Shown here piece after piece: positions 220 to 23,933 of a stretch of 35,681 bases of DNA. Within the stretch, counting starts at the first letter, position 1; every line of letters starts with the position of its first letter. Both the position numbers and the translations under genes were made by a program. The notes beneath the pieces are model-generated. The model made no database searches, had not been told where the DNA came from, and saw nothing but the letters and a program-made list of their open reading frames with translations. The DNA comes from Pseudomonadota bacterium (lineage in GTDB: Bacteria > Myxococcota > JACRCW01 > JAFGSX01), in assembly GCA_043821645.1 (NCBI GenBank), contig JBDRCO010000139.1:1-35681 (forward strand), in the 5' to 3' direction.

Positions 220-1734
220 CTAATGATCAAGGCACACGACGCCGACATTGTTAAAAAGAATGGCAGTAGATAGCTTGTGTGGCCAGGCCGCTGCCCGCTC
301 ACAGTATGCCTTTGCGACCTCAATATCTTCTGTGGTGCAATCTGCAAATGCATACCCTGATACTTCTCTGATTAAGTTGATCTTGGACCAATCTGAATGA
401 AAAGCCGAGATATTCATGTCTCCCGTAGCCGTTCGAATCGGCAAGGGATAGCCCCAGTGCCCACCTATCACGGCCAGCTTCATGCTGGACGAAAAACTTG
501 GCTGGCTTTCAAGTTTCACCACAATCCTGTTCGCCATCTCTCGATCCCGCATATTGACGCGAAGCTGATCAAACCAGACGCTGTTGTTGATTCCCGCAAA
601 ACAAAACAGCACGAGCGTCAGCAACACGAGGAGACCTTTTTGTGCTTTCTCTCTGAGTAGGAGATACACCATGGCGGCGGTCCCGGCCCAAAACACACTG
701 ACAGCAGATAGAGTTCGCGGAACGGGCCACCAAACCACCAACGGCAAAGTGATGCCGAGAATCATGAGGAAGGCCATCCCGATCAGGATGATCACCCCGA
801 AAGCGCCCAGGGCGCTTGCGGGTGCATTTCTCTTCCAGAATCTTCCGATGACCAGAATCAATCCAGTGACCAGTAGTCCGCCAAATATGACTTTGAGCGC
901 CACGGGCATGAGCGGCTCGTCGCGCCCAAGAATGAGCCAAAATGTATCCAAAACCTCCCGGAATCGGTTGGCGAGATCCCCCAAACCACCTATCTGGGTT
1001 CGACCTTCAAGAGGTTCTGGAAAGAAATATAAACTCACCCGGAATATGGTCCAGTAACAGGCCATGGAGACCACGATGATTGAAAGACGAAAAACGAGCC
1101 TGACGTCTTGCAGGGAGTCCTTCCAGGTTCGAACAGGCTCGCCAGCTCCCGGCGGAATGACCCGAAAGATCAACATGAAGATCAGAGTCATGAGCACATA
1201 ATTCAAGACCAGCTGGTACAGCGAAAGGGCTGCGACCAACAGACCAACGGCCACCACGCCTCGCACCATTCCGTGACCCGCGTGATGCATGGCCACGAAG
1301 CTCAATAACAGCGAGACGGCCATGAAAAAACTGAACTCTCCGAACGTGAAGATATCCGCTTGGTAGGGATGCGTGGCGATGATGCTCATGACAGAGACCA
1401 TCAAACACGAATTTCTTGTGATACCCCACAATCTGCAAATGATGATTCCAACAAATAGAAAGCAGACCAATGCGACCGCCACATACAGGGTTCCAGGTAA
1501 TGGCCCGACCAGCCCCACGGCCTCAAACAGGTTGCGCAGAATCAGCTGGCCAAATCGTCCTTGGCTCAGTGGCGTGGGTGGCAATCCCGGACGAAGGATT
1601 CGGACGTAGGTATCGCTCGCATAGGCAAAGGGGAACAGAGCCGCCCCCTTGGCGATCAGAGAAATGGCACCGGCGATGAGAAACGCCTGGGCTTCCGACC
1701 TGGAAAGCTTGAAGATGGCCGGGAGCTGCAACAC
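220..1734 (-). CDS. GtrII-like multi-pass membrane glycosyltransferase (GT-C type)
   Basis: 504 aa with about 10-11 hydrophobic helices, GRF, HPY, SLYQ and PR motifs, and a soluble C-terminal domain (D.E.ANRI, ISAF...WSK). Start codon uncertain (TTG at 1734, GGAG upstream). Confidence 0.65.
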   Translation of the reverse strand: MLQLPAIFKLSRSEAQAFLIAGAISLIAKGAALFPFAYASDTYVRILRPGLPPTPLSQGRFGQLILRNLFEAVGLVGPLPGTLYVAVALVCFLFVGIIICRLWGITRNSCLMVSVMSIIATHPYQADIFTFGEFSFFMAVSLLLSFVAMHHAGHGMVRGVVAVGLLVAALSLYQLVLNYVLMTLIFMLIFRVIPPGAGEPVRTWKDSLQDVRLVFRLSIIVVSMACYWTIFRVSLYFFPEPLEGRTQIGGLGDLANRFREVLDTFWLILGRDEPLMPVALKVIFGGLLVTGLILVIGRFWKRNAPASALGAFGVIILIGMAFLMILGITLPLVVWWPVPRTLSAVSVFWAGTAAMVYLLLREKAQKGLLVLLTLVLFCFAGINNSVWFDQLRVNMRDREMANRIVVKLESQPSFSSSMKLAVIGGHWGYPLPIRTATGDMNISAFHSDWSKINLIREVSGYAFADCTTEDIEVAKAYCERAAAWPHKLSTAILFNNVGVVCLDH

Positions 1735-5270: not shown

Positions 5271-7754
5271 TCAGTAGCCGATGGCGCGTGACCGCTTGCG
5301 CACCGCCAACAGGATTCCCCCGATGAGGAACAAAGCAGTGTTCGGGACGCCGTTCCCGTTGGCAGAACACGAGCAGCCACCCGCTTCGTCGGGCTGCTCT
5401 TGCTGTGCTACCGGGGCACCGCTGCAGGCCCGGCCCACGCCGTCGCTGGCCTGCTGGTCGCTGTTGGGCACCAGGGGGCAGTTGTCGTCGACGTCAGGGA
5501 CGCCATCCCCGTCGGTGTCCAGCGGCGGCAACGCGGGCTCGCAGGCGTCGCCTGTGCCATCGCCATCCGCGTCTTCCTGGTCGGGATTGGCGATGCCGGG
5601 GCAGTTGTCGGCGGCATCAGCGACACCGTCGTCATCGCCATCGCTCTCGGAGGTGCACACGTCGCCGACACCATCGGCGTTGCCGTCGCTCTGATCGGCA
5701 TTGGCGACGCCGGGACAGTTGTCACAGGCATCACCCACGCCATCCTGATCCGAGTCGGCTCCACTGTCGGCGATGCTCGGGCACAGGTCACAGGCATCGG
5801 GCAGACCATCGGCGTCGCCATCTGCGTCGCTGGTCGTGGCCAGGCCAGGGCAGGGATCGCAGGCGTCGCCGCGCTGATCGCCGTCACTGTCCTCTTGCCC
5901 GGGGTTGTCCACCGTCGGGCAGTTGTCCACGTCGTCCAGGATCCCGTCGGTATCGGATTCGAAGACCTGAAAGGCTCCGATGTCGCAGCCCACGCCCGAG
6001 GCCGGGCGCGCGGAGCCACGTTGATCGGCCGTCACCAGGGCCCCGTCCTGATCCACGCAGGTGCCCGCATGCAGCGCCGGACTTCCCTGCTCGAGCGCCA
6101 CGGTGGGCGTCGACCCGCCGTGATCGCCAAAGTCGCCCAGCCCCGGGGTGCCGCTCAGGACATCGCTCGGGTCACCGGTGCAGCCACCCTGGCTGTCGAA
6201 GAGATTGAAGCCCTGGGAGTCCACACCACCGCCGTAGCCAGAACAGTCCGGGTGAACCGTCGACACATTGTCGACGATGATGCTGCCTCGCGGCGCGATG
6301 GTCCCGTACAGCGAGAACACGCCACCCGCGATCGCCTGGCCGTCCTCGGCCTGGGTCAGGATGGTCCCGGCAGCTCCCTTGACTCCCGCCGTCGCCACGT
6401 TGGCGACGATGGTCACATGGTCCAGGGTCACGAAGCCCGAGTGATCGAAGATCGCGCCACCCAGGCCAGCGCCACCCCCACCCGCAGCACCGTCGAGCGA
6501 GTTCGACAGACCTCCCGCGCCGCCACCAAAGCCGGCGTTGGGGCAGTAGTTCCTGCTGGCCGGGTCGCAGACGGGCTGGCGGGTACTGCAGGCGCCCGAG
6601 CCAGCCCCGCCACCGCCAAAGCCTCCCCTGCCACCGTGGTTGGGCCATTCGCAGGTGCCACCGCCGCCGCCGCCGCCGCCGAGATGGCCACCACGACCAC
6701 CACCGCTGCTGCCACCGCCTCCGCCAAGGCCTCCGCCCATGCCCCCCGGGTTGTAGGACAAATAATTGTCGGGGTTGGCCAGGCCGCCCGGCCCGCCGGG
6801 TCCTCCCCGCGCCTCGTTGCCGGTCAGGGTCGAGGTGGACAGGCGTACCTGTCCGTTGTCGTTGTAGATGGCGCCGCCGGCGCCCGCCGCTCCGCCACCG
6901 CCGCCTCCACCAAGGACGGCCCCGCTGCTGCCAGCGCCACCTGCGCCGCCCACGGCGAGGTTGTCAAAGAAGCTGCAGCCGCGCGCGGCGAAGAAGCCGC
7001 TGTTGAAGATCGCGCCGCCCGCACCGGGCCCCTTGACCCTGGAATCATGCGCTTCACTGCAGATACCCTCGAAGCACACCTCGTCCGTGATGCCGTCAGA
7101 TCCCAGGGCCACGTTGTCCCGGGCCACGACGTCGATGAGCGCCAGGTTGCCCTGGTTGAAAATGGCGCCGCCTCCCGTGAGGGCGCGCCCGCCGCGCAGG
7201 GTGAGGTCGCGGATCTCGACGCTGTGGGTGGCCAGGACGTGGACGATGCGATCGTTCCCGGCTCCATCGAGGATGGTCACGCTCGCCCCGAGCCCCCGGA
7301 TCTCGAGGTCACCAGCGATATCCAGATCGCCGAAGGCGTTCTCGTTGTCTCCCCCACTGGGCTGGCACACCTCCACCAGTTCCGGGTCGGGGAAGCACAG
7401 ATCAGGGTTGCGCCGGCTGAGCGTGTAGGTCCCCTCGCCGAGCAGGATGACATCGCGGACGCCCGTCTCTCCTGCGGTGCAGCCCCCCAGGGCCCTGTCG
7501 GCGTTCGCCGAGTCCACCGCTTCGCGCAGCGAACAGCCTGTGTCCGGGCCAGGTGCGAAGCGACAGTACGATCCCTGGACGCGGGATTCGCAGACCGCAT
7601 CGTCCTCGCAAAAGAAGTCTGGCCCCTGCGAGCACATCCCACGCCACGAGTTCTCGTCCGCAAAGGTCGTCACGGTGATCTCGGCGGCGTGCACCGAGGC
7701 TGTCGACAGCAGGGCCGCGACGAGCACGAGAATCGATCCAGATAGTGTTCTCAT
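5271..7754 (-). CDS. Cell-surface protein: CSLREA domain, Gly-rich beta-helix-like region, thrombospondin type 3 repeats, MYXO-CTERM
   Basis: Signal peptide, GCSLREAV motif, GGAIFN/GGAIYN repeats, choice-of-anchor-Q-like DQRG..RP....CDIGAF, repeated DNCP...N..Q.D.DGD..GDAC, and a C-terminal GGCSC + hydrophobic helix + RKRSR. Confidence 0.85.
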   Translation of the reverse strand: MRTLSGSILVLVAALLSTASVHAAEITVTTFADENSWRGMCSQGPDFFCEDDAVCESRVQGSYCRFAPGPDTGCSLREAVDSANADRALGGCTAGETGVRDVILLGEGTYTLSRRNPDLCFPDPELVEVCQPSGGDNENAFGDLDIAGDLEIRGLGASVTILDGAGNDRIVHVLATHSVEIRDLTLRGGRALTGGGAIFNQGNLALIDVVARDNVALGSDGITDEVCFEGICSEAHDSRVKGPGAGGAIFNSGFFAARGCSFFDNLAVGGAGGAGSSGAVLGGGGGGGAAGAGGAIYNDNGQVRLSTSTLTGNEARGGPGGPGGLANPDNYLSYNPGGMGGGLGGGGGSSGGGRGGHLGGGGGGGGTCEWPNHGGRGGFGGGGAGSGACSTRQPVCDPASRNYCPNAGFGGGAGGLSNSLDGAAGGGGAGLGGAIFDHSGFVTLDHVTIVANVATAGVKGAAGTILTQAEDGQAIAGGVFSLYGTIAPRGSIIVDNVSTVHPDCSGYGGGVDSQGFNLFDSQGGCTGDPSDVLSGTPGLGDFGDHGGSTPTVALEQGSPALHAGTCVDQDGALVTADQRGSARPASGVGCDIGAFQVFESDTDGILDDVDNCPTVDNPGQEDSDGDQRGDACDPCPGLATTSDADGDADGLPDACDLCPSIADSGADSDQDGVGDACDNCPGVANADQSDGNADGVGDVCTSESDGDDDGVADAADNCPGIANPDQEDADGDGTGDACEPALPPLDTDGDGVPDVDDNCPLVPNSDQQASDGVGRACSGAPVAQQEQPDEAGGCSCSANGNGVPNTALFLIGGILLAVRKRSRAIGY
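5430..5960 (-). repeat. Tandem thrombospondin type 3 (Ca-binding) repeats within the CSLREA protein
   Basis: About six D(N/P/L)CP units with DxDGD..GDAC linkers in the translation. Confidence 0.85.
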
Positions 7755-7768
7755 GGTTCTTCCTGGCG

Positions 7769-10700
7769 CTAGCGCGCGACCGAGACGTAGTCGAGGCGCA
7801 GCAGGATGTCGTCGATGTTCTCGAGCACCAGGCCGTCGTCCTGGGGTGTTCTGGAGATCAGCGCCGCCGGGATGAACAGCGCGTACTCGCCATACAGGCC
7901 GCGGGCGGCCAGCTCCGAGGTCGAGCCATTGGCGTAGGCATCGCGCTCGAACTCAGCGCGATCGACGTTGAAGTAGGCTTGCATCCGGGCGCGGCTGCGC
8001 TCATCCGAGCGGCCCACACCCAGCGCTGAGCCGAAGGCGGGGTCCACCTCGTCGGGTTCCCGGAACAGGTTGCGCGAGGGCCGCACCGACGCAGTCTGGA
8101 AGGACGCCTCGTGGGGCGCACACCACTGACTGAAGAAGGTGTTGGACTTGAGCAGATCGATGCGCACGAAAGTGGGGGTGTCGCCCCGGGTCAGGGATGA
8201 GCCAAGGATGCTCGCATTGACGTTCCACAGGCGCTCGGCGCAGTCGCTGGAGGCGAACACCGGGACACCCTGGACCTCGCCCAGACCGAAGGCCGCCAGC
8301 GGTGCCAGCGAGAAGGGAATGCTCTGCCCCACGTAGGCCCCGCTGTCGTCGTACTGGGCAAAGCGCTGCGAGCGCAGCACCATGCGGAAGCGCTCGACAT
8401 CGGTGAGGCGGTGCCAGCCCACGGGCTGGGTCTGCGAGAGGTCACCGAGCTGCAGCAGGTTCTTGCGCAGGCTGAGCACGACCTTAAGATCCGAGGGACG
8501 GTTGCCACCGATGCCACGGGTGGCCGTGATGGTGCGCAGATCGTCGGCCACGGCATCGAGCTCCTCGGGGGTCTCCGCCGCCAGCACACGGGCCTCTTCT
8601 TGCCGGCTCTCCTGGAACTCGTACGCCACGGCGCGAACCGCCAGGTACAGGATGCGCCGGGCAATGCGCAGCTTGCGCTGGTAGGTGTCCACCTTCTCGT
8701 CGAACCAGAAGTCGTTGGACGGCGGCCGCACCTGGCGCGCCGCGGCGATCTTGAGCGCTGCGCGGCCCGCATCGTGGGCGGTCTGTGCCGAGGACTTGTC
8801 CTGCTCGAATTTGTACAGGGCCACGTTCATGTCCGAGATGGCCTTCTGCACGCGCAGCGAGGCGGTGCGCACCCCCACCAGGAACAGCTCCGCGTCGTTG
8901 AAGCACAGCTGCTCGTCCACCTCGTTTTGCAGGTTCAGCATCAGCGCCTCGTGCGAGGCCTCGGCATTGGCCATCTCGGCCTCGATATCGATGCTCTCTG
9001 CTTCCGTGAAGCCCCCGGCCAGTCCGGCTCCCACCGCCACCCCGGCTGCCAGCAAGCTTGTGGGCCCGCCCGCCAGCGTCGCGGCAGCGTCCTCGAAGGC
9101 ATCGAGGAAGGCTGTGGCCTGGTCGGCCTTGGCCTTCTGCGTGCGGAGCGCCGCCATGGTCTGGTTGTGCTGCGCGAGCGCAGACTCCATCGCGTCGTTG
9201 CCGACCTGCTGGATGATGCAGGAGCGAATGGCCACGTCGTAGGAGTCCTGCAAATCCGTCATCTCGGAGCGGGCGATGTCCAGATCCGTGACCACACCCT
9301 TCAGCTCGAGGGCGGATTCGCCGAGGCCACCGTTGTAGCAGGCGCGGTCCGTCAGGGGCTGCCCGGGCAGGTCCGCGACCCGCGGCAGCTGCTCCCGGGC
9401 CCGCGGGAACTGCCGTTGACAGGTGGTCCGCGCCTCTTCGAGCAAGGCCACGGGTGTCTGCTCCATCCCCTGGAAGGCCTGAAACACGCTCGGGGGCACG
9501 GGCACGCTGCGGCAACCCGGCCCGTCGGGGTTTCTGGTACACGCGCAGCGGGCATCGTCGGGGTTGGCAGCGCAGTAGACACAGGCCGCCGCCACGACAC
9601 CTTGACCCGTGAGGGCGGCGCCTGCGCAGCCCGTCCACAGAGCGGCGTCGAGCAGCGCCACGTCGTCGAGAGCACCGGCAGCGTCCAGGGCGACACCGGC
9701 GGTGAAGTCGACGATTCGCTCGCTCAGGCGCGGGCTCCACTGGCACGACATGCAGGGACCGGGCACACCCTCCGGGCACTCGGCGGGGAAGGTGGGGTTG
9801 CTGCAGCCCGCGATCTCGTCGCTGACGCCCTCGTAGGCGGGGTCCAGGAAGCCTATCCCCTGGGCCGTACGCGTGCGCAGCTCGCGGACCACGCAGAACT
9901 GGTACTGCAGGTCGTCGAGCTGCATCGCCTGCTCGTAGGCCTCGACGGGCACCTGACAGCTCGGGTCCGAGGACAGGATGAAGCAGTTGTTGGCCGAGAA
10001 GCGGGACGGCCAGTGCTCCAGGACGTCCAGGGGATCGACGCCGGCCGGAAGACCGCAGTAGCCGATCACCTGATCACCGAAGGTGCGGCGGATCTGATCG
10101 AGACGATCGGCCAGCTGGGCGTCATCGAGCGCTTGCTCGAACTGCCGCTGCTGCAGCGCCAGGCCCGCTTCCTGCGCGGCCACACGTGCATCCTTGGCCT
10201 GCTGCACGGCCACGCGCCCGAAGGCCGAGATCGAACCCGGGGCCCCCAGCAGGAAGTCCGAGATCGCGGTGAAGCGGCTGGTGGCCGTGCTCTCGTCGCC
10301 AAAGAAGTACAGCGGCAGATCGCTGTCAGCGATGCCCAGGGGGTTGCGACCGAGCTCGGCGTCGCGCGCGGCCCGCAGCAGGGCGCGCAGGGTCCCGTCG
10401 TAGGTGCGCTCGCTCCCCACGTAGCGTTCGAGCCAGCGCGCCGGGGGCAGGCCCTGCTCCGCTGCGTGGCGCTGGGCCTGGGCCACAAGCCCGGCCGCGA
10501 TGGCACGCACCGGAGCCTCGGTCCGCAGGAACTGCGCCAGCGCGTCGCGCACCCGCGCCAGGGTCACCGGCGGGCAATCCACCGGGCAGCGCTGGGCGCG
10601 GAGCATCAGCTCGCGCAGCAGGCTGGCCTGGGCATCCAGGGTCTCGAGCAGCAGAGGAGCAAGTCCTGCCTGCGCGTCGGGGCCGCTGTCCTTGAGGGCC

Positions 10701-13066
10701 TGCTCGCTGGCACCGTAGAAGCGGCGATAGTCCGGCGCGTAGGCGACGGCGTCGGGCAGGGCCTGCAGGGCCGAGAAGACCCGCGGGTGCAGCAACAGGT
10801 GCCAGCCGGCCAGCGAGACGTCCAGGGCGTCCACGGGCTGGATCTCGGTCGGCAACTCGACGATCTTCTGGATCGAGTCCAGCTGCAGGGCCTCGCGCGC
10901 GACCAGCCCGTGCAGGGTCAACCACGACTGCAGCAAATGCTGGGTCAGCGCCAGGGCCTGGGCATCGTCTGGCTGCGCGGTCGCACCGGGTGGGCGGCGC
11001 GCAGGACCCGTCGCCTGGCCCAGGGCAAAGGCGAAGCGGCCAGCGCCCAGACAGCCGGTGTTCGCAAAGAGATCATCCAGCGCCTTGCCATTGGTCCACG
11101 CCGTCGAGGCGGGAGCCTGGCGCGCGTCCTCGAGATCCGTCATGCAGGCCTCGAAGACCTTGAAGAACCCGTCGCTACCGCGGGCGTCCACGAGACCGGC
11201 GGAGCGCGTGCCCGAGCTGCACGTGCTCTCGCCGGCCGCGTCCAGGCTGGCACTGAACAGCGAAGACTTGGTCGAGTCGTGGGTGACGTCCTCGGGCTCA
11301 AAGCCGTGGCCATCCCAGCACAGGCTCAGCTGCGCGCAGCCAGCACAGCCGGTGGGCTGATCGAAGACGCAGACCCGCTCGACATCCGTCGGGACCTCGT
11401 ACACTCGGAGCCGAGGTTGGGTTGTTGCCGGGTCCAGGTCCACGTCGCTGCTCACCACAATCCTGGTCGTCAACACCGCTGCATCCTGGGTCGAGCGCAC
11501 CGTGCAGCCGTAGTTTTCGGCGACGACATCGCAGGCGTCGACGGAGCCCATGTCCAGGGTGTTCTGATCGACAAGATGTGGACGGAAGACTCGGGGTGAG
11601 ATCTGGCAGGGAAAGGCGCCGCCCAGGCTGGCGTCGACGATCAGAAGATCGGTCTGCAGCGACGTGATGGGGGTGCTGCTGTAGCCGGCGAGTTCTTTGG
11701 CATCGCGGAAGGCGACCACCAGGGGATCGCTGGACGCAGGGTCCTCCGAATGCCAGAAGGCCCTGGCCGCCTCGGTCACCATCTTCGCGGCGTCGGCCGG
11801 CTTGCACACGTCCAGGTAGCCTGCGTCGCGGCGCAGGCCAAAGTAGGCGCCGGCCTCGACGCCGGCTGCGACGTCAAAGCTGCCGAACTCAGGACTCAGG
11901 GCCTCCTGAACCCTGGTCTCCCATGTGCTCGGAATGTCGCGGCGCGCGAGCGGAGGATCCTGGGCGGCGGGCAGCTGCGGCCGTGGCGCGGTGGCCGGCA
12001 GCACCCCGCTGCGGCTGAGCACGACGCTGTACACCACCCGCGGTGCCGGGCCCTGGTCGCCGACGCCCGCAAAGGACAGCTCCAGCTCGAAGGACAGCGT
12101 CGGGCTGGCGCCCGTCACCAGGACCTCGGCCGCCGCGGGCCGGGCCACGACCTCGCTGCTGAGGCCGGCGAGCGCGGTGCCCATCAGATACGTGTAGGCG
12201 GGCCACTGCAGGCTGCCGCTCTGTGAGCCGCTGGCGAGCTGCAGGCTTCCGATCAAGCGGCCGCTTGGGTGGAGCAGCTTCTGGGCGTCGTTCACGACCA
12301 AGATCCCGCTCCCTGAGGTCCCGTCCGCAAACAGCTCGGCGGTGAGCGGATAGCTGAGCTCGTCCTCGACCGCAGGCAGCGGACTCCCGTCCAGGCCGAC
12401 ACCCCTTTGCTTGATCGTCGCCGAACCGAGGTAGACGCCGGCGCGCGGGCCCTGCTGCGCATCCGCCGTGGGCTCGACGGTCAGCGAGTAGCGGTCGCTG
12501 CCACTGAAGATGCCGAGCACGCCCGCCGGGGTGGTGGCCGGTTCACCGTCGAGGCGAACGCGCAGGGCCTGGGAGTCCAGACCTGCGATCCCCGGGTAGC
12601 TGCACTCCGACGCAAAGGTCGATGCTGTACACGCCACCGAGAATCCCTCGGGTGCCGTCACGCGAACCGGGCCGAGCGCCTGCTCGGGCGCTCCCAGCTT
12701 CACCTGGCGCGTCACGCCCGACGCGTGAAAGCGCAAAAACTTCGTCGACAGCGTGAGCGGTGCTTGTCGCACCGTGGACGGAAATGGCGTGACGTTCTCA
12801 TCGCCCACCGCCCGGCATCGACCGAAGGAGTCGCACAGGCCGCCGCCGCACTGCGCGTCCGAGCTGCAGTCGGCGGTGCAGGTGCCGAGGGCGCAGTGGG
12901 TCCCGCAGGGGCAGTGATCGTCGTTCACGCAGGTTCCGGCGGAGGCGACGAGCTGCGCGCTCACCTCACAGCGAGCCATGGAGGGTGTGGTTTCTTTTTT
13001 ATCTGTGGCGGGACAGGCAGCCAGTAGGAGCAGGCCGACAGGGACTGCAAGGGTCGCGCGAGGCAT
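7769..13066 (-). CDS. Very large lipoprotein (~1765 aa) with Cys-rich N-terminus and Tc toxin A-subunit-like C-terminal region
   Basis: ATG 13066 with AGGAGGAG RBS and lipobox LLLLAAC. Long helical region around an Ala/Gly hydrophobic stretch, ARRILYLAVRAVAYEF, and a C-terminal GLYGEYALFIP...IDDILLRLDYVS. The ORF is secure; the product is inferred. Confidence 0.6.
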   Translation of the reverse strand: MPRATLAVPVGLLLLAACPATDKKETTPSMARCEVSAQLVASAGTCVNDDHCPCGTHCALGTCTADCSSDAQCGGGLCDSFGRCRAVGDENVTPFPSTVRQAPLTLSTKFLRFHASGVTRQVKLGAPEQALGPVRVTAPEGFSVACTASTFASECSYPGIAGLDSQALRVRLDGEPATTPAGVLGIFSGSDRYSLTVEPTADAQQGPRAGVYLGSATIKQRGVGLDGSPLPAVEDELSYPLTAELFADGTSGSGILVVNDAQKLLHPSGRLIGSLQLASGSQSGSLQWPAYTYLMGTALAGLSSEVVARPAAAEVLVTGASPTLSFELELSFAGVGDQGPAPRVVYSVVLSRSGVLPATAPRPQLPAAQDPPLARRDIPSTWETRVQEALSPEFGSFDVAAGVEAGAYFGLRRDAGYLDVCKPADAAKMVTEAARAFWHSEDPASSDPLVVAFRDAKELAGYSSTPITSLQTDLLIVDASLGGAFPCQISPRVFRPHLVDQNTLDMGSVDACDVVAENYGCTVRSTQDAAVLTTRIVVSSDVDLDPATTQPRLRVYEVPTDVERVCVFDQPTGCAGCAQLSLCWDGHGFEPEDVTHDSTKSSLFSASLDAAGESTCSSGTRSAGLVDARGSDGFFKVFEACMTDLEDARQAPASTAWTNGKALDDLFANTGCLGAGRFAFALGQATGPARRPPGATAQPDDAQALALTQHLLQSWLTLHGLVAREALQLDSIQKIVELPTEIQPVDALDVSLAGWHLLLHPRVFSALQALPDAVAYAPDYRRFYGASEQALKDSGPDAQAGLAPLLLETLDAQASLLRELMLRAQRCPVDCPPVTLARVRDALAQFLRTEAPVRAIAAGLVAQAQRHAAEQGLPPARWLERYVGSERTYDGTLRALLRAARDAELGRNPLGIADSDLPLYFFGDESTATSRFTAISDFLLGAPGSISAFGRVAVQQAKDARVAAQEAGLALQQRQFEQALDDAQLADRLDQIRRTFGDQVIGYCGLPAGVDPLDVLEHWPSRFSANNCFILSSDPSCQVPVEAYEQAMQLDDLQYQFCVVRELRTRTAQGIGFLDPAYEGVSDEIAGCSNPTFPAECPEGVPGPCMSCQWSPRLSERIVDFTAGVALDAAGALDDVALLDAALWTGCAGAALTGQGVVAAACVYCAANPDDARCACTRNPDGPGCRSVPVPPSVFQAFQGMEQTPVALLEEARTTCQRQFPRAREQLPRVADLPGQPLTDRACYNGGLGESALELKGVVTDLDIARSEMTDLQDSYDVAIRSCIIQQVGNDAMESALAQHNQTMAALRTQKAKADQATAFLDAFEDAAATLAGGPTSLLAAGVAVGAGLAGGFTEAESIDIEAEMANAEASHEALMLNLQNEVDEQLCFNDAELFLVGVRTASLRVQKAISDMNVALYKFEQDKSSAQTAHDAGRAALKIAAARQVRPPSNDFWFDEKVDTYQRKLRIARRILYLAVRAVAYEFQESRQEEARVLAAETPEELDAVADDLRTITATRGIGGNRPSDLKVVLSLRKNLLQLGDLSQTQPVGWHRLTDVERFRMVLRSQRFAQYDDSGAYVGQSIPFSLAPLAAFGLGEVQGVPVFASSDCAERLWNVNASILGSSLTRGDTPTFVRIDLLKSNTFFSQWCAPHEASFQTASVRPSRNLFREPDEVDPAFGSALGVGRSDERSRARMQAYFNVDRAEFERDAYANGSTSELAARGLYGEYALFIPAALISRTPQDDGLVLENIDDILLRLDYVSVAR

Positions 13067-13347
13067 GGCCCTCTCCTCCTGCACGCAGGTGCAGACATGA
13101 ATCGGTATTTCGGTGACATGAACGAGGCGCGTCGGTCGCTGCAGGCCACATGACCGCTGCCGATGGGACCGCCCCGGGATTTCAATCCGGTCGTGTCACG
13201 CACCTAGTGCTGGATGACGCCCACCGCAAGCCATTGACCCATACGGTCGCGTATATTTTTGTATCCGGCAGGTCCCCCGATTCAGGGAGCAGCTCGACCC
13301 TGCCGCGGTGTGGCCGCCCCGGCGGACTCGATGAAGGGCGCAGTCCT

Positions 13348-19262: not shown

Positions 19263-19970
19263 ATGGTCTGTCGTCCTCGTCTCACCTGGGCCCTGCGACG
19301 GGTCGCAACGCTGCCCGTCATCGTCGGGCTGGGCTGCCCGGCCGTCGAGCTCGACGTCGACGCAGGCCGCACGGCCGACGCCGGTCTCGTACACGATGCG
19401 GCGGTGGACAGCGGCAGCAGCAGTGGCGAATGGCTGCGCAACGCCCCCAACGCCGATCCGCCCACGCTGCTGGCGCCCGACCCCGGCGAGGAGGGGCGCT
19501 GGGCCGCGGCCCGCCTCACCCCGTCGGTCTATCCCTTTGAGGTCGACCTGGTGAACTACACCGTGGGCGACGGCGAGGCCGGCGACGTGATGTGCAGCGG
19601 CACCCTGGCCCACCAGCTGCGGCTGTGGGTGGCCAGCAGCAGCGCACCACCCGACGACCAGACACCGGCCCTCGAGTTCAGCATCCCCACCCTCGACCCT
19701 GCCCTGCTCGGCCACCTGGGTCGCAGCGTCGGCCAGGTGCTCGACCCACCGCTGGTGCTGGAACAGGGACAGCACCTGTTCGTCGCCGTGCAGCTCCCGG
19801 GGAGCTATCCGGACGTGCTGTGCGTGCAGGTCAATCCCACGGGGTCGTACCAGGGCGACCGCAACTACTTCAGCGGCGCGACCGCTGCGCCCTACGGCTG
19901 GGCACAGCTCGACAGCCTCGGCCTGACAGGCAGCCTGCTGTTCACAGCCCACGGTCAGCAACAACCCTGA
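19263..19970 (+). CDS. Hypothetical putative lipoprotein
   Basis: GGGGAGG RBS before ATG 19263, VIVGLGC lipobox-like motif, DAG-rich linker, beta-rich domain. Confidence 0.65.
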   Translation: MVCRPRLTWALRRVATLPVIVGLGCPAVELDVDAGRTADAGLVHDAAVDSGSSSGEWLRNAPNADPPTLLAPDPGEEGRWAAARLTPSVYPFEVDLVNYTVGDGEAGDVMCSGTLAHQLRLWVASSSAPPDDQTPALEFSIPTLDPALLGHLGRSVGQVLDPPLVLEQGQHLFVAVQLPGSYPDVLCVQVNPTGSYQGDRNYFSGATAAPYGWAQLDSLGLTGSLLFTAHGQQQP

Positions 19971-20144
19971 CCCTCGGCACCGTGTCGGCGGTGGCCCCAA
20001 CAGATGCGTACCAGCGCATGTGCAGCCGCAACGAACGCGGGATCCCAGAAATTGGTGCCACCCGAGTTTCGGAAGGGGCCTCGATGACCTGGTCGGTGTC
20101 TCGTTAGCCTCAGCGAACTGCGCCGTACCCTGGTCACAGAGGTC

Positions 20145-21044
20145 CTACGCGAACAGCTCGGAACGAGCGGCAGAGCAGATCGCCGCGACCGCCGGGTGCC
20201 GGACCCGGCGCTCCGCGGAGATGGCGTAGTAGCGCTCAACCACGCCATCCGCTGTCCCGATGCTCTGGACACCATATTGTTCTGCCACTTCAGCCGCGAT
20301 CACGTCGGGCACCGCGAAGAAGCCCGCGCCCGCCTGCCCAAAGGCCTTCAGCAAGGCGCTGTCGTCGAACTCTCCCACGACAACTGGCTTGACTCCGCGC
20401 GCGCTGAACCATCCATCCAGATCCTGTCGAAGAGCCGCACCTTCACTCGGCAAGAGAACCGGTGCCCTGTCGAGCGAGGCCGGGAATCCCGGCCACAGGC
20501 TCATGGCTTTGTCCGGTCGAGCCATGAAGGTGACGCCGCAGGTTCCGAGCAGATGATTGTACGCTCGGACGCTCACCGTTGGAGGTATCGGGCAATCTGA
20601 CAGGACCACATCCAGGACGTGGATGGCGAGGTCGGCAAGCAGCTTCTCCGGCGAGCCCTCGCGACAGGCGATCTGGACGCGCTCCTCCAGCTGGGCCGAT
20701 GGCTCGAGGAGTCGATAGGCGATGAGTTTTGGCAACACGTCCGCCACACCCACCCGGAGCTTCAGCGGGCGTCCTGTCGGCTGGCCACGAAGCGTCTCGC
20801 TGAGCTCCCTACTAAGCGAGAAAATCTCGTCAGCGTACCGCAGAGCGACCTGGCCGGCGGAGGTCAGGACCATGCGACGACCGGTGCGCTGAAACAGTTT
20901 CTCCCCGATGGCCGCCTCGAGTTCGCGAATCTGCATGCTGACGGTCTGTGGCGTGAGATGAATCTTGGCGCTGGCGCGCGTCAGGTGGCCTTCTCGCGCA
21001 ACCGCCCAGAAGAGCCTCAGATGGTGGAGGTTGAGTGATTCCAT
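20145..21044 (-). CDS. nhaR: LysR-family transcriptional activator NhaR
   Basis: LNLHHL..FW.VAREG...RAS....LTPQT.S.QI, VGVADVLPKLIAYRLLEP, EFDDSALLKAFGQAG.G, YYAISAERRV.HPAV.AI. Confidence 0.9.
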   Translation of the reverse strand: MESLNLHHLRLFWAVAREGHLTRASAKIHLTPQTVSMQIRELEAAIGEKLFQRTGRRMVLTSAGQVALRYADEIFSLSRELSETLRGQPTGRPLKLRVGVADVLPKLIAYRLLEPSAQLEERVQIACREGSPEKLLADLAIHVLDVVLSDCPIPPTVSVRAYNHLLGTCGVTFMARPDKAMSLWPGFPASLDRAPVLLPSEGAALRQDLDGWFSARGVKPVVVGEFDDSALLKAFGQAGAGFFAVPDVIAAEVAEQYGVQSIGTADGVVERYYAISAERRVRHPAVAAICSAARSELFA

Positions 21045-21056
21045 GATTTTCCAAAA

Positions 21057-21073
21057 GTTCGAGTTCATCGAAC
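21057..21073. promoter_or_regulatory. LysR-type (NhaR) recognition box in the divergent promoter
   Basis: Perfect dyad GTTCGA-N5-TCGAAC containing T-N11-A (21059-21071), 12 bp upstream of the nhaR start and followed by AT-rich sequence. Confidence 0.65.
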
Positions 21074-21224
21074 CATATAGCAGAAACAATCGACTGGAAC
21101 AGATGAACTGGCAACGGTAACTAGAAACCAGACCCGGTTCGGTGTCGGCTTGGCCGGCGCGACTGCTGCGAGCCGGGCTGGGTGTCTCGATTTGCGTTCA
21201 ACTCGAAGCCAGGAGGAGATCGTC

Positions 21225-22499
21225 ATGGACCTCGACAAACTGAGTCTGCATTTCAGGAACCTTGCCGCGCTGGGCGAAGAGGACAGCCCGGTCATCAGCT
21301 GCTACATCAACAACGAAGCGGGGCGTGCCGGCTACCGCGATGCGACCGATGCCCGGATCCGGGAGATCCGCAAGGCGTTGCCGGCCGATCAGCGCCTCGA
21401 TTTCGAGCAGGCGCTCGGCAGAATCGAGACTTTCCTCGCGGCCGACGTGAAGGCGGACGCGAAGGGTTTGGCGATCTTTTCTCGCGGTGGCGAGAAGCCG
21501 TTCTTCGATGCCCTTCAGTTCAGATTACCGCTCCCCAATCTGATGACGGTGGATGCGGTCCCGCATATCTACGAGTTGGTCTTGCTCAAGGATATGTACC
21601 ACCGCTACATCGTGCTGATCTCGACGGAGTCCCACGCTCGCATCCTCGAGGTGAGCGTGGGCGAGGTGACAAAGGAGCTGTGGACCCAGCGCCCGGAGCT
21701 GCGCAGGCGTGTCGGTCGGGAATGGACCAAGGAGCACTACCAGAACCACCATCGAGATCGAACGCAGAAGTTTCTCAAAGAGAAGATCGAGATCCTGGAC
21801 CGTCTGTTCGCAACAGAAGCACACACCCACCTGATGATCGTCGGTAGCCCGCGCACGGTCGCGGGAGTGCGAGCCATCCTGCCCAAGCGCCTTCAGGACA
21901 AACTGGTCGAGGGCGGCCCAAGGTCGGGCCATGCCTCCACGGCTGACGTGGTCAGCGCGACGCTGTCGAGCTTCGCAGACCACGAACAAACCGAGTCGCT
22001 GGAGACTGCAGGTCTCTTTCTGGATGAACTGCGAACGGGTGGACTGGCGGTGGCGGGTGCCGAGGCGACGCTGGAAGCTCTTGCTCAGGGACAGGTCGAC
22101 GTCCTGGTGCTATCCGAGTTCTACGCCCCGCCAGCCGGATGGAAATGCCGCGAATGTGCGTGTGTCGGGGTCCACCAGGCACCCGTGGCGTGTCCGCAGT
22201 GCGGTGAACGCACCGTCGCCCCGCTCAATCTCAAGGAAGAGATGGTGAGGATCGCCGAACGGGACGGTTGCAGCGTGGAGATCGTGCGCAACAGCGATGT
22301 CCTGCTCGAGGTCGGTGGCGTCGGCTGTCTGCTCCGGTACCTGACCTCAGAGCAGCGTGCCGATCAGACACCCTCATGGCGGCGACCAAACCACGTGCGA
22401 TGGAACGGATCGCCTGCGCCAGAGAAAACACGTGGAGGGGATGCATTCATGATGGGCGCAACGTGGGACGCAGGAGCTTTGAACAGCAGAGGGTCTTGA
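21225..22499 (+). CDS. Bacterial archaeo-eukaryotic release factor homolog (baeRF10/Balon-like) with zinc ribbon
   Basis: AGGAGGAG RBS. PVISCYIN, GLAIF, ARI, LAVAG.EATL.AL..GQVDVL, CREC...CPQCG and GGVGCLLRY match aeRF1/Pelota domains 2-3. Confidence 0.8.
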   Translation: MDLDKLSLHFRNLAALGEEDSPVISCYINNEAGRAGYRDATDARIREIRKALPADQRLDFEQALGRIETFLAADVKADAKGLAIFSRGGEKPFFDALQFRLPLPNLMTVDAVPHIYELVLLKDMYHRYIVLISTESHARILEVSVGEVTKELWTQRPELRRRVGREWTKEHYQNHHRDRTQKFLKEKIEILDRLFATEAHTHLMIVGSPRTVAGVRAILPKRLQDKLVEGGPRSGHASTADVVSATLSSFADHEQTESLETAGLFLDELRTGGLAVAGAEATLEALAQGQVDVLVLSEFYAPPAGWKCRECACVGVHQAPVACPQCGERTVAPLNLKEEMVRIAERDGCSVEIVRNSDVLLEVGGVGCLLRYLTSEQRADQTPSWRRPNHVRWNGSPAPEKTRGGDAFMMGATWDAGALNSRGS

Positions 22500-22501
22500 A
22501 C

Positions 22502-23350
22502 GTGAAGCACGAGAACGCCACTCTCGTCGGGGATGGACCCTCCAGGCGCAGAAGCCATCTCCTGCGACGTATCTTCCAGCTGATTCTCCTGGCCGTGGCG
22601 GCGGATCTTGTTCTGCTGCTTGCCGAGCTCGCGGCGGGGCTGGACCCGCTGGTGGATATCCAGCAGCGCCCTATTCTGTATCTGTATGTTCTGGGGGGCA
22701 CCCTCGTGGTCTTTGGTGCTTTTGGAGCCGTCCTGGGCTCCCGGGAGGCGCAGCTGGAGGACATGGCGTTCCGGGATTCGGTCACCGGCTTGCTCAACTC
22801 ACGATACCTGCATGAGCGCCTGCGAGAAGAACTTGCAGCAGCCAGACGGCATGGCAAGCCCACCTCGCTGGTGCTGTTCGACATCGACCATTTCAAACGG
22901 GTGAACGACGAGCACGGGCACCCCGTCGGCGACCAGGTGCTTCAGCTGGTGGGCCGGACGATGCGGTCGATACTCCGTGAAGGCGAGATCGCCGCCAGGG
23001 TCGGAGGGGAGGAGTTCGCGCTGCTGTTGCCGGGCACCTCGGTCGGCGGTGCTGCGGCTGCGGCCGAACGCATCCGTGAGGCCATCGGCCAGGTGGCGGT
23101 GGTCACCAGAACCGACCAGCGGCTCGCGGTGACCGTGTCTGCCGGTGTGGCATGTTCGATACTCCAAGAGGTTCAAGACGCTGCAGAGCTTTACGGTCTC
23201 GCAGACCAGGCGCTCTATCAGGCCAAGAGGCAAGGGCGTGACCGGGCGATCGTGGGTGCGACGAAGGGTTGGTTTCTAGCTGATGCTGCTGGCGGGTCGG
23301 ACAGCACAGGCGCGGTCCTGTCTCAGCAACGCCCCGTGCGGTCGAGCTGA
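22502..23350 (+). CDS. Membrane-anchored diguanylate cyclase (GGDEF)
   Basis: Two TM helices, D.VTGLLN, DIDHFKRVND.HGH..GD, GGEEF, ADQALYQAK.QGRDR. GTG start at 22502 is inferred. Confidence 0.9.
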   Translation: MKHENATLVGDGPSRRRSHLLRRIFQLILLAVAADLVLLLAELAAGLDPLVDIQQRPILYLYVLGGTLVVFGAFGAVLGSREAQLEDMAFRDSVTGLLNSRYLHERLREELAAARRHGKPTSLVLFDIDHFKRVNDEHGHPVGDQVLQLVGRTMRSILREGEIAARVGGEEFALLLPGTSVGGAAAAAERIREAIGQVAVVTRTDQRLAVTVSAGVACSILQEVQDAAELYGLADQALYQAKRQGRDRAIVGATKGWFLADAAGGSDSTGAVLSQQRPVRSS

Positions 23351-23933
23351 TCAACTTCGCGACAGGGCAAGGTGAAAATCGATGAGCACAGGCATGGGTC
23401 TGCGCAGTCTTCCTCCCGGAGTGTCGCCCCAGGTGCATCGGCTCGCGCCGGCGAAGTCGTAAGAAGCATGAAGCGTGTGGAGGTGCGCGCGCCGGGGCGA
23501 TCGCTGGCGCCTCGGCGGGCAGACCGACGTGGTGCTGGTTGGATGAAGTCCGTCCGGACCTGTGCCAGACGGACGAAGGTCTTCCCGAAAGACCTTCGAC
23601 AAAACCAGCGCAGGCGGGCCTCGGCGAGATCGGTCACGAACGCGTCCAGCTTGAACTGGCCCCGCCGCACCCCCGCTCAAAAACCTCGCCCGTCCACAAC
23701 TCGGCGACGCCCTCGGGGCCGCGCGGCGCCAGGTCCTCGACGGGCAGGGGGGGACAGAGCACGATGGTCAGGTCATGCTGGCCTCGACGCGCTCTGGGGT
23801 GACGCGGCGTGGCCGATCACGCAGAGATCACGGGGCCTTCTGGCAATGGGGCGAGGCAGGCGTGACAAAGATATCGGCTCTGTCCCTGGCGGATCCTGGT
23901 GGCGGCGAGTCAGGTCTGTGAGCTCGCCCCGCT

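Follow-up and report, generated by a model that had tools for sequence, protein, structure and literature searches.

Bacterial homologues of the release factor aeRF1 that lack the GGQ motif were predicted in 2019 by Aravind's group to block the ribosomal A site (PMC6514570), and such blocking was shown in 2024 for Balon and for the mycobacterial proteins Msmeg1130 and Rv2629, the latter two binding the A site and inhibiting translation (Helena-Bueno et al. 2024, PMC10901736). Balon places an HP motif at the decoding centre, wraps a lasso loop around A2602, carries a bL27 trap and contacts EF-Tu (PMC10901736). Balon-type factors were recognised only in 2024. In Escherichia coli, which according to PMC10901736 has no aeRF1 homologue, the LysR-type regulator NhaR induces nhaA, osmC and pgaA when pH and salt are high (PMC6307784). 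Here we describe a locus that places these two kinds of protein side by side. It lies in a 35,681-nucleotide (nt) stretch of DNA, hereafter the window (contig JBDRCO010000139.1 of assembly GCA_043821645.1, from a Pseudomonadota bacterium), where positions 20145-23350 hold three genes: a NhaR-type LysR gene on the minus strand, a divergent gene on the plus strand for a three-domain aeRF1 homologue (bacterial aeRF1, baeRF), and a plus-strand GGDEF gene.

Our preferred reading, held with moderate confidence, is that the aeRF1 homologue is a Balon-like, non-hydrolytic occupant of the A site that is controlled by NhaR in Na+ or alkaline stress, with a lineage-specific diguanylate cyclase on the same transcript. 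Stress would act through the divergent NhaR-type protein, which would govern the baeRF promoter via a conserved dyad and a second box, so that the factor is made; the product of 21225-22499, a factor of baeRF family 10 and of the Balon kind, would then occupy the A site without hydrolysing peptidyl-tRNA and, once bound, act in hibernation or translation arrest. Genes beside its relatives (Na+(K+)/H+ antiporters, HtpX, UspE-like proteins and TerC/Alx) would mark the factor as part of a cation- and pH-homeostasis stress response, to which this genome would have added a downstream membrane-anchored diguanylate cyclase, tying a rise in cyclic di-GMP (c-di-GMP) to the same signal. The NhaR and antiporter context suggests that the factor shuts translation down under salt or alkaline stress. 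An initial annotation of this DNA had proposed a non-catalytic A-site binder linked to NhaR and to c-di-GMP signalling. Its statements about the letters themselves (nhaR, the dyad, the loop, the missing GGQ, the spacing of the GGDEF gene and the missing nhaA) all check out, as does its picture of a GGQ-less, Balon-like aeRF1 homologue with a recurrent NhaR/Na+ link; the c-di-GMP coupling is peculiar to the window and is seen in none of 24 homologous loci, and the concept of a non-catalytic A-site binder is already published and not new.

The baeRF gene starts at an ATG at 21225, ends with a TGA at 22497-22499 and encodes 424 amino acids (aa), of which residues 1-376 form a conserved core. A Shine-Dalgarno sequence, AGGAGGAG, can be read directly upstream of the ATG (21211-21218, plus strand), and AAGGAGA is kept at the same place before the baeRF gene in two related loci (L002 and L003; L numbers denote loci of the genome survey described below). 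Profile hidden Markov models confirm the predicted aeRF1-like identity and assign the protein to Pfam baeRF_family10 (PF18854; 68.6 bits against a cutoff of 27.1), the best match among ten baeRF families. All 24 clade members match PF18854, and in all ten of the nearest ESM-Atlas clusters by features among those listed, 95-100% of members carry this domain. Searched against the Protein Data Bank (PDB), the clade profile matches the Balons Msmeg1130 (E = 3.4e-13) and Rv2629 (E = 4.1e-12) over their full length, and the C domain of the archaeal release factor aRF1 (4af1; E = 2.3e-12). An AlphaFold2 model built on a 24-sequence alignment (predicted local distance difference test score (pLDDT) 79.8, predicted template modelling score (pTM) 0.68) shows N, M and C domains. 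Its top Foldseek match is ribosome-bound Msmeg1130 (8v9l_z; E = 9e-22, template modelling (TM) score 0.77), followed by aRF1 and Psychrobacter urativorans Balon (TM 0.66-0.69; 8rdw_B 0.66) and then eRF1. Whole-chain matches to Balon structures, together with the lack of GGQ and NIKS, give the protein the Balon architecture and set it apart from class-I release factors, whose model TIGR03676 it matches with 30.1 bits against a cutoff of 234.7.

The mycobacterial Balons Msmeg1130 and Rv2629 (PDB 8v9j, 8v9l, 8v9k) have the same three-domain, aeRF1-like build without GGQ or NIKS, and a C-terminal GGVGxLLRY motif is common to both and to the window protein. Identity is only ~19%, however, and the window protein has a differing loop (GREWTKEHYQxH) and a zinc ribbon; the mycobacterial genes are described as hypoxia-induced (PMC10901736), whereas the context here is one of NhaR and antiporters. 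P. urativorans Balon (8rd8, 8rdv, 8rdw) has the same fold at 12% identity (TM 0.66-0.69, E = 1e-16 to 4e-18) and the same proposed role, that of an A-site hibernation factor in stress operons, which for the window protein is a prediction from sequence and model. The usual neighbour of P. urativorans Balon is RaiA, in contrast to this clade, in which RaiA is found in 0 of 142 neighbour open reading frames (ORFs). The window protein is homologous to aRF1 and eRF1 in its M and C domains and has its zinc ribbon where their C domain carries a zinc-ribbon or mini-domain insert, but GGQ and NIKS are missing and whole-chain TM is lower, at ~0.5.

The zinc-ribbon insert (CREC...CPQC; 22143-22205, plus strand) lies in the C-terminal eRF1_3/Pelota-type domain and has CxxC motifs at residues 308 and 323. 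The aRF1 insert aligns with it, and among the 24 aligned homologues 14 have it and 10 lack it. Beyond the core, the C-terminal tail (residues 377-424; 22353-22496) is unconserved, with no counterpart in 23 homologues. It looks non-coding, with pLDDT below 50 for residues 382-424 and a G+C content at third codon positions (GC3) of 0.54, against 0.77 in the core, and is probably read-through of a former spacer.

The M-domain loop and helix start that occupy the position of the aeRF1 GGQ loop span R162-H175, RVGREWTKEHYQNH (21708-21749, plus strand). Translation confirms the loop read earlier, VGREWTKEHYQNH, encoded exactly at 21711-21749, and neither GGQ nor NIKS occurs anywhere in the 424 residues. 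HMMER aligns the GGQ of aRF1 (4af1) to V163-G164-R165, with R165 at the glutamine position, and aligns the 'AGQ' of Msmeg1130 to the same G164-R165. Residues 161-168 read RRVGREWT, with no Gln in the loop proper; the following helix begins at K169 in the model (assigned by DSSP), and the invariant Q173 lies inside that helix. The catalytic position is a non-Gln residue under every alignment made, the candidates being R165, W167 and K169. The initial annotation had aligned WTKEHYQ with a WSQ.RYQ loop of family 10 (WTK with 'WSQ', Q to K), an alignment that is chemically plausible and unconfirmed; small-residue-then-Q motifs such as GGxSQ are described for related families (PMC6514570). GREWTKEHYQxH is invariant in the collected set, and conservation along the protein peaks in the loop region, whose length never varies. 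We do not count the invariance of residues 166-173 as evidence, because EWTKEHYQ itself was the exact search pattern that brought in 22 of 23 loci; R162, G164 and H175, which are invariant, and P157, L159, R160 and R165, which are nearly so, lie outside that pattern and attest constraint independently.

The regulator gene was identified as nhaR in the initial annotation, and the call holds: the ORF at 20145-21089 (minus strand) scores 244.8 bits against the NCBIfam NhaR equivalog NF008284 (cutoff 219), covering model positions 1-295 of 299. Because the match begins at ORF residue 16 and homologues share that Met start, we set the gene to 20145-21044 (minus strand; 299 aa, Pfam HTH_1 and LysR_substrate). 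Its product shares 62-65% identity with the regulators encoded divergently in L003 and L002. Compared with the E. coli NhaR regulon (nhaA, osmC, pgaABCD), the regulator is of the same equivalog type, and L014 pairs this type with nhaA, the only such linkage among the loci; the target here would instead be a ribosome factor, and Na+ sensing by the window regulator is putative.

An operator-like dyad, TTCGA-N5-TCGAA with a T-N11-A core, lies at 21058-21072 in the divergent promoter region, as is typical of LysR-type operators, and precedes the nhaR ATG by 13 nt and the baeRF ATG by ~160 nt. The 'perfect LysR dyad' of the earlier description is real: the arms GTTCGA and TCGAAC at 21057-21062 and 21068-21073 are perfect, with a 5-nt spacer, giving GTTCGA-N5-TCGAAC at 21057-21073. 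TTCGA-N5-TCGAA occurs once in the window, against 0.02 occurrences expected by chance, and matched in 2 of 100 shuffles. L002 and L003, like the window, have nhaR and the baeRF gene as divergent neighbours, and all three loci keep the dyad 13-14 nt before the nhaR start codon; no fourth match to the full dyad turns up in the 330 kb of window and loci. A second conserved box, ATCGAnTGGA (21089-21098), begins exactly 31 nt from the dyad start, on the baeRF side, in all three, and is a candidate activation site. The nhaR-baeRF spacers (180 nt in the window, 540 nt in L002 and 244 nt in L003) are mostly unalignable except for these two elements, which form the classic layout of a putative LysR regulatory site plus activation site. 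Degenerate versions of the dyad and box 2 occur beside nhaR in L005 and L017. The arms keep their sequence between the window, L002 and L003 and do not covary, which speaks for a DNA site bound by protein more than for a hairpin in the nhaR leader RNA; a hairpin would also be compatible with L005, where a different dyad has the same geometry. A second perfect inverted repeat of 8 nt (AGTTCATC at 21062-21069 and GATGAACT at 21102-21109, 32 nt apart) overlaps the dyad spacer and lies just past box 2; it is absent from L002 and L003. A promoter and terminator scan of 19900-23700 found no sigma-70-like site, and its single terminator-like site falls inside the GGDEF gene, below chance level, making the scan uninformative.

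The relatives come from one pattern-based scan of genome contigs, with the ascertainment bias on the loop noted above, which yielded 26 loci. In 24 of these the homologue, 37-78% identical, is complete or almost so (in L021 it runs off the contig, and in L023 it is split over two frames); L026 has a 72-aa remnant and L027 a zinc-ribbon-like match only. We scanned 142 ORFs within 3.2 kb with Pfam, checked key ones by NCBIfam and tblastn, and give plain tallies over the 24 loci. NhaR homologues of 49-65% identity accompany five (L002, L003, L005, L014, L017), and the four complete copies among them (L003, L005, L014, L017) all pass the NF008284 cutoff of 219 with 250-263 bits. Cation/proton antiporters stand beside eight: NhaA in L014, Mrp in L013, L015, L018 and L025, CPA2 with TrkA_N in L009 and L012, and, in L017, a DUF1538 pair resembling UmpA/UmpB (362.7 bits, under the cutoff of 490). 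A CPA2 fragment lies at the edge of L016 too. NhaR or an antiporter is thus present in 11 of the 24 loci, and in 12 once TerC/Alx is added (3/24; L005, L014, L024); L014 combines these in the order nhaR-terC-baeRF-nhaA. HtpX-type M48 proteases occur in seven loci (L005, L008, L010, L015, L018, L024, L025), as do tandem Usp genes of the UspE-like kind (L004, L005, L007, L011, L013, L018, L023). The initial annotation had envisaged exchange between the baeRF gene and HPF/RaiA genes, which our survey does not bear out: Ribosomal_S30AE has no match among the 142 neighbour ORFs (0/24 loci), all of at least 95 aa, a size that shorter HPFs would escape.

A maximum-likelihood tree built from 23 rows, omitting L021 and L023, places the window together with L002 (Binatia) and L003 (Acidobacteriota) at support 100/98 and L004 (Myxococcales) as their sister. 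The divergent nhaR-baeRF pair and its operator are kept across the three phylum-level lineages of the window, L002 and L003, with differing downstream genes. The loci with NhaR are spread over at least four separate clades of this tree, whose branching does not match the phyla. With NhaR in five loci, antiporters in eight and the operator in all three divergent loci, the NhaR/Na+-alkali link proposed for the window recurs, and we take the recurrence of four unrelated antiporter families as an argument against chance.

The GGDEF gene (22502-23350, plus strand; 282 aa from a GTG start) encodes a membrane-anchored diguanylate cyclase with two hydrophobic helices followed by the GGDEF domain (Pfam PF00990, E = 2.1e-47; NCBIfam TIGR00254, 166 bits). 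The active site, GGEEF at residue 168, is an intact GG(D/E)EF motif, and what we take to be the position of the RxxD inhibitory site reads REGE. The GTG at 22502 follows the baeRF stop by 2 nt, as previously noted, in a frame that is open from 22268, so the start is a prediction; the close spacing carries the caveat that the tail of the baeRF ORF probably reads through a former spacer. The scan shows no terminator-like site between the two genes, and the GGDEF gene is probably co-transcribed with the baeRF gene. Biofilm output driven by NhaR has a precedent, because the E. coli regulator, which joins ion homeostasis to biofilm formation, induces pgaA (PMC6307784); the diguanylate cyclase would be the parallel here. 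As a conserved feature of the family, c-di-GMP coupling was considered and rejected: Pfam finds no GGDEF, EAL or PilZ domain among the 142 neighbour ORFs. The joining of a diguanylate cyclase to this operon is a local curiosity and no general rule.

Several observations weigh against a NhaR-controlled, Balon-like factor for salt or alkaline stress. The protein scores 55.9 bits against the Rv2629-family model NF052289 (cutoff 320) and 43.5 bits against the MSMEG_1130-family model NF052288 (cutoff 480), in both cases with a full-length alignment; these scores are far under both mycobacterial cutoffs, and the protein is therefore a distant relative outside those equivalogs. The functional definition of NhaR, Na+-responsive activation of an adjacent nhaA, finds no counterpart in the gene content, as neither Pfam, applied to 20 large ORFs, nor tblastn, with NhaA, MrpA, MrpD and CPA2 as queries, detected nhaA or any other antiporter in the 35.7-kb window, in agreement with the initial annotation. 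The dyad is part of the nhaR leader, where 13 nt part it from the ATG, its distance from the baeRF start varies (~160, 223 and 520 nt), and it could serve nhaR autoregulation only; because of this placement and variable distance, NhaR control of the baeRF gene is something we infer. The GGDEF pairing is unique to the window, tblastn with the window GGDEF protein finding it in 0 of 24 loci. Four loci (L019-L022) and the short contig L006 show none of the recurrent neighbours, and all loci come from metagenome assemblies (many phyla) with heuristically called ORFs. Finally, family 10 is the baeRF family considered possibly catalytic (PMC6514570), and the loop here is very strongly conserved and of fixed length.

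This last point is the starting point for a decidedly unlikely alternative in which the protein is an active peptidyl-tRNA hydrolase for ribosome rescue, its GREWTKEHYQxH loop positioning water in the peptidyl-transferase centre through a non-GGQ residue (for example Q173, K169 or H171) and freeing peptides from ribosomes that ionic or alkaline stress has stalled. Burroughs and Aravind (2019; PMC6514570) singled out family 10 as having a conserved Gln and as the most likely catalytic baeRF family, and named a conserved loop of fixed length as a mark of active families. The invariance of R162, G164 and H175 in a loop without length variation, an invariant Q173 eight residues after the GGQ-aligned position, and the retention of the full three-domain architecture and zinc ribbon would all fit such an enzyme. 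However, residues 161-168 offer no Gln, Q173 is within the following helix, the invariance of residues 166-173 was forced by the search pattern, and the nearest relatives of known structure (Msmeg1130 and Rv2629) act in hibernation without hydrolysis (PMC10901736). Whether family 10 is catalytic was left open by Burroughs and Aravind, and GREWTKEHYQxH provides a defined motif with which to ask.

The neighbourhoods bear on two further alternatives. In one, which we consider rather unlikely, the protein would be a Balon-type hibernation factor for general stress without Na+ or pH specificity, the LysR protein would regulate itself or other genes, and the antiporters would belong to mosaic stress islands assembled by horizontal transfer. 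Usp and HtpX, both general stress genes, are about as frequent as antiporters (7/24 loci each); sigma-54 response regulators occur in L007, L016 and L023, with LuxR-type two-component pairs instead in L008 and L010; and the dyad lies in the nhaR leader. Balon genes are found in varied stress operons (PMC10901736), and an Azospirillum plasmid homologue is adjoined by genes for a sigma factor, DnaJ/CbpM, Usp and DegQ. Unspecific islands would hardly explain, however, why NhaR, TerC/Alx and antiporters of four unrelated families keep returning, in 12 of 24 loci and in separate clades, or why the divergent nhaR-baeRF pair and its operator persist in three phylum-level lineages despite differing downstream genes. 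The other alternative, which we find scarcely credible, gives the protein no hibernation role on ribosomes and casts it as an RNA-binding or co-translational factor on which synthesis or regulation of the neighbouring membrane transporters depends; its neighbours are indeed mostly polytopic membrane proteins and HtpX, a membrane-protein quality-control protease. Yet neither the window nor its two closest relatives have a transporter beside the gene, the modelled whole-chain fold matches A-site factors, and we know of no precedent for such a role, which also counts against it.

A stronger version of our preferred reading, that of an A-site occupant made under NhaR control, can also be formulated. 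The GREWTKEHYQxH clade might be a dedicated translation factor for Na+ and alkaline stress, in which the titratable K169, E170, H171 and H175 make ribosome binding dependent on pH or cations while the same NhaR signal raises c-di-GMP. We regard this version as quite improbable. If it were true, failure of pH or Na+ homeostasis in the cytoplasm would be just the moment at which ribosomes are parked and base-labile peptidyl-tRNA is protected.

What appears to be new here is the regulatory and genomic context and the distinct loop motif. PMC6514570 and PMC10901736 report HPF/RaiA, Hsp20, OsmC/OsmY, HdeD, MarC/EmrB and RtcB as neighbours, and their main texts mention no antiporter, Usp, NhaA, LysR or diguanylate cyclase, cases of which their supplementary tables may list. 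The terms antiporter, sodium, salt and alkaline do not appear in bioRxiv 10.1101/2025.11.04.686544, and we found no paper joining Balon, a hibernation factor and an antiporter, and none linking NhaR with eRF1 or hibernation. The NhaR/antiporter context of the baeRF factor appears to be unreported. Together, NhaR, a conserved operator and recurrent Na+(K+)/H+ antiporters would point to salt or alkaline stress as a concrete trigger within one branch of the family.

The nhaR-baeRF-GGDEF block also differs in composition from its surroundings: G+C is 0.60-0.64 at 20000-23400, against 0.65-0.73 around it, and GC3 of the three genes is 0.73-0.77, against 0.79-0.90 in neighbouring genes. With a baeRF tree that is incongruent with phyla, the module looks as if it had been horizontally acquired as a unit. 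A search of a plasmid collection returned one distant homologue, the Azospirillum protein mentioned above (24% identity, with a different loop and in a different stress island), which was left out of the alignments.

Some loci show further features. The remnant in L026 (5968-9470) is a 72-aa ORF with GREWTKEHYQSH; a tandem Usp gene comes next, then a CPA2 antiporter whose tail is PTS-EIIA-like, and the gene order makes the locus a putative decayed copy of the same baeRF-Usp-CPA2 neighbourhood. The split homologue in L023 (6001-7108; two tblastn pieces, offset by 613 nt) is a frameshifted pseudogene or an assembly error. In L017 (1501-7069), the operon divergent from nhaR encodes a DHH-DHHA1-CBS protein, a cytidylate-kinase-like protein, the baeRF factor, two DUF1538 proteins, P-II and a CBS protein; the first of these corresponds to the N-terminal half of an A-adding tRNA nucleotidyltransferase model (263.6 bits; cutoff 1440). 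In the CPA2-linked loci L009 (5179-5917) and L012 (4524-5939), small Zn_ribbon_TFIIB-type ORFs of ~100 aa, one or two per locus, immediately precede the baeRF gene. Elsewhere in the window, positions 1-2000 have a low G+C content (0.53-0.57, against 0.64-0.73 elsewhere) and include a GtrII-like glucosyltransferase ORF (220-1734, minus strand), and positions 5271-13084 are taken up by two very large minus-strand ORFs, one of 827 aa with thrombospondin type-3 repeats and one of 1771 aa without a Pfam match.

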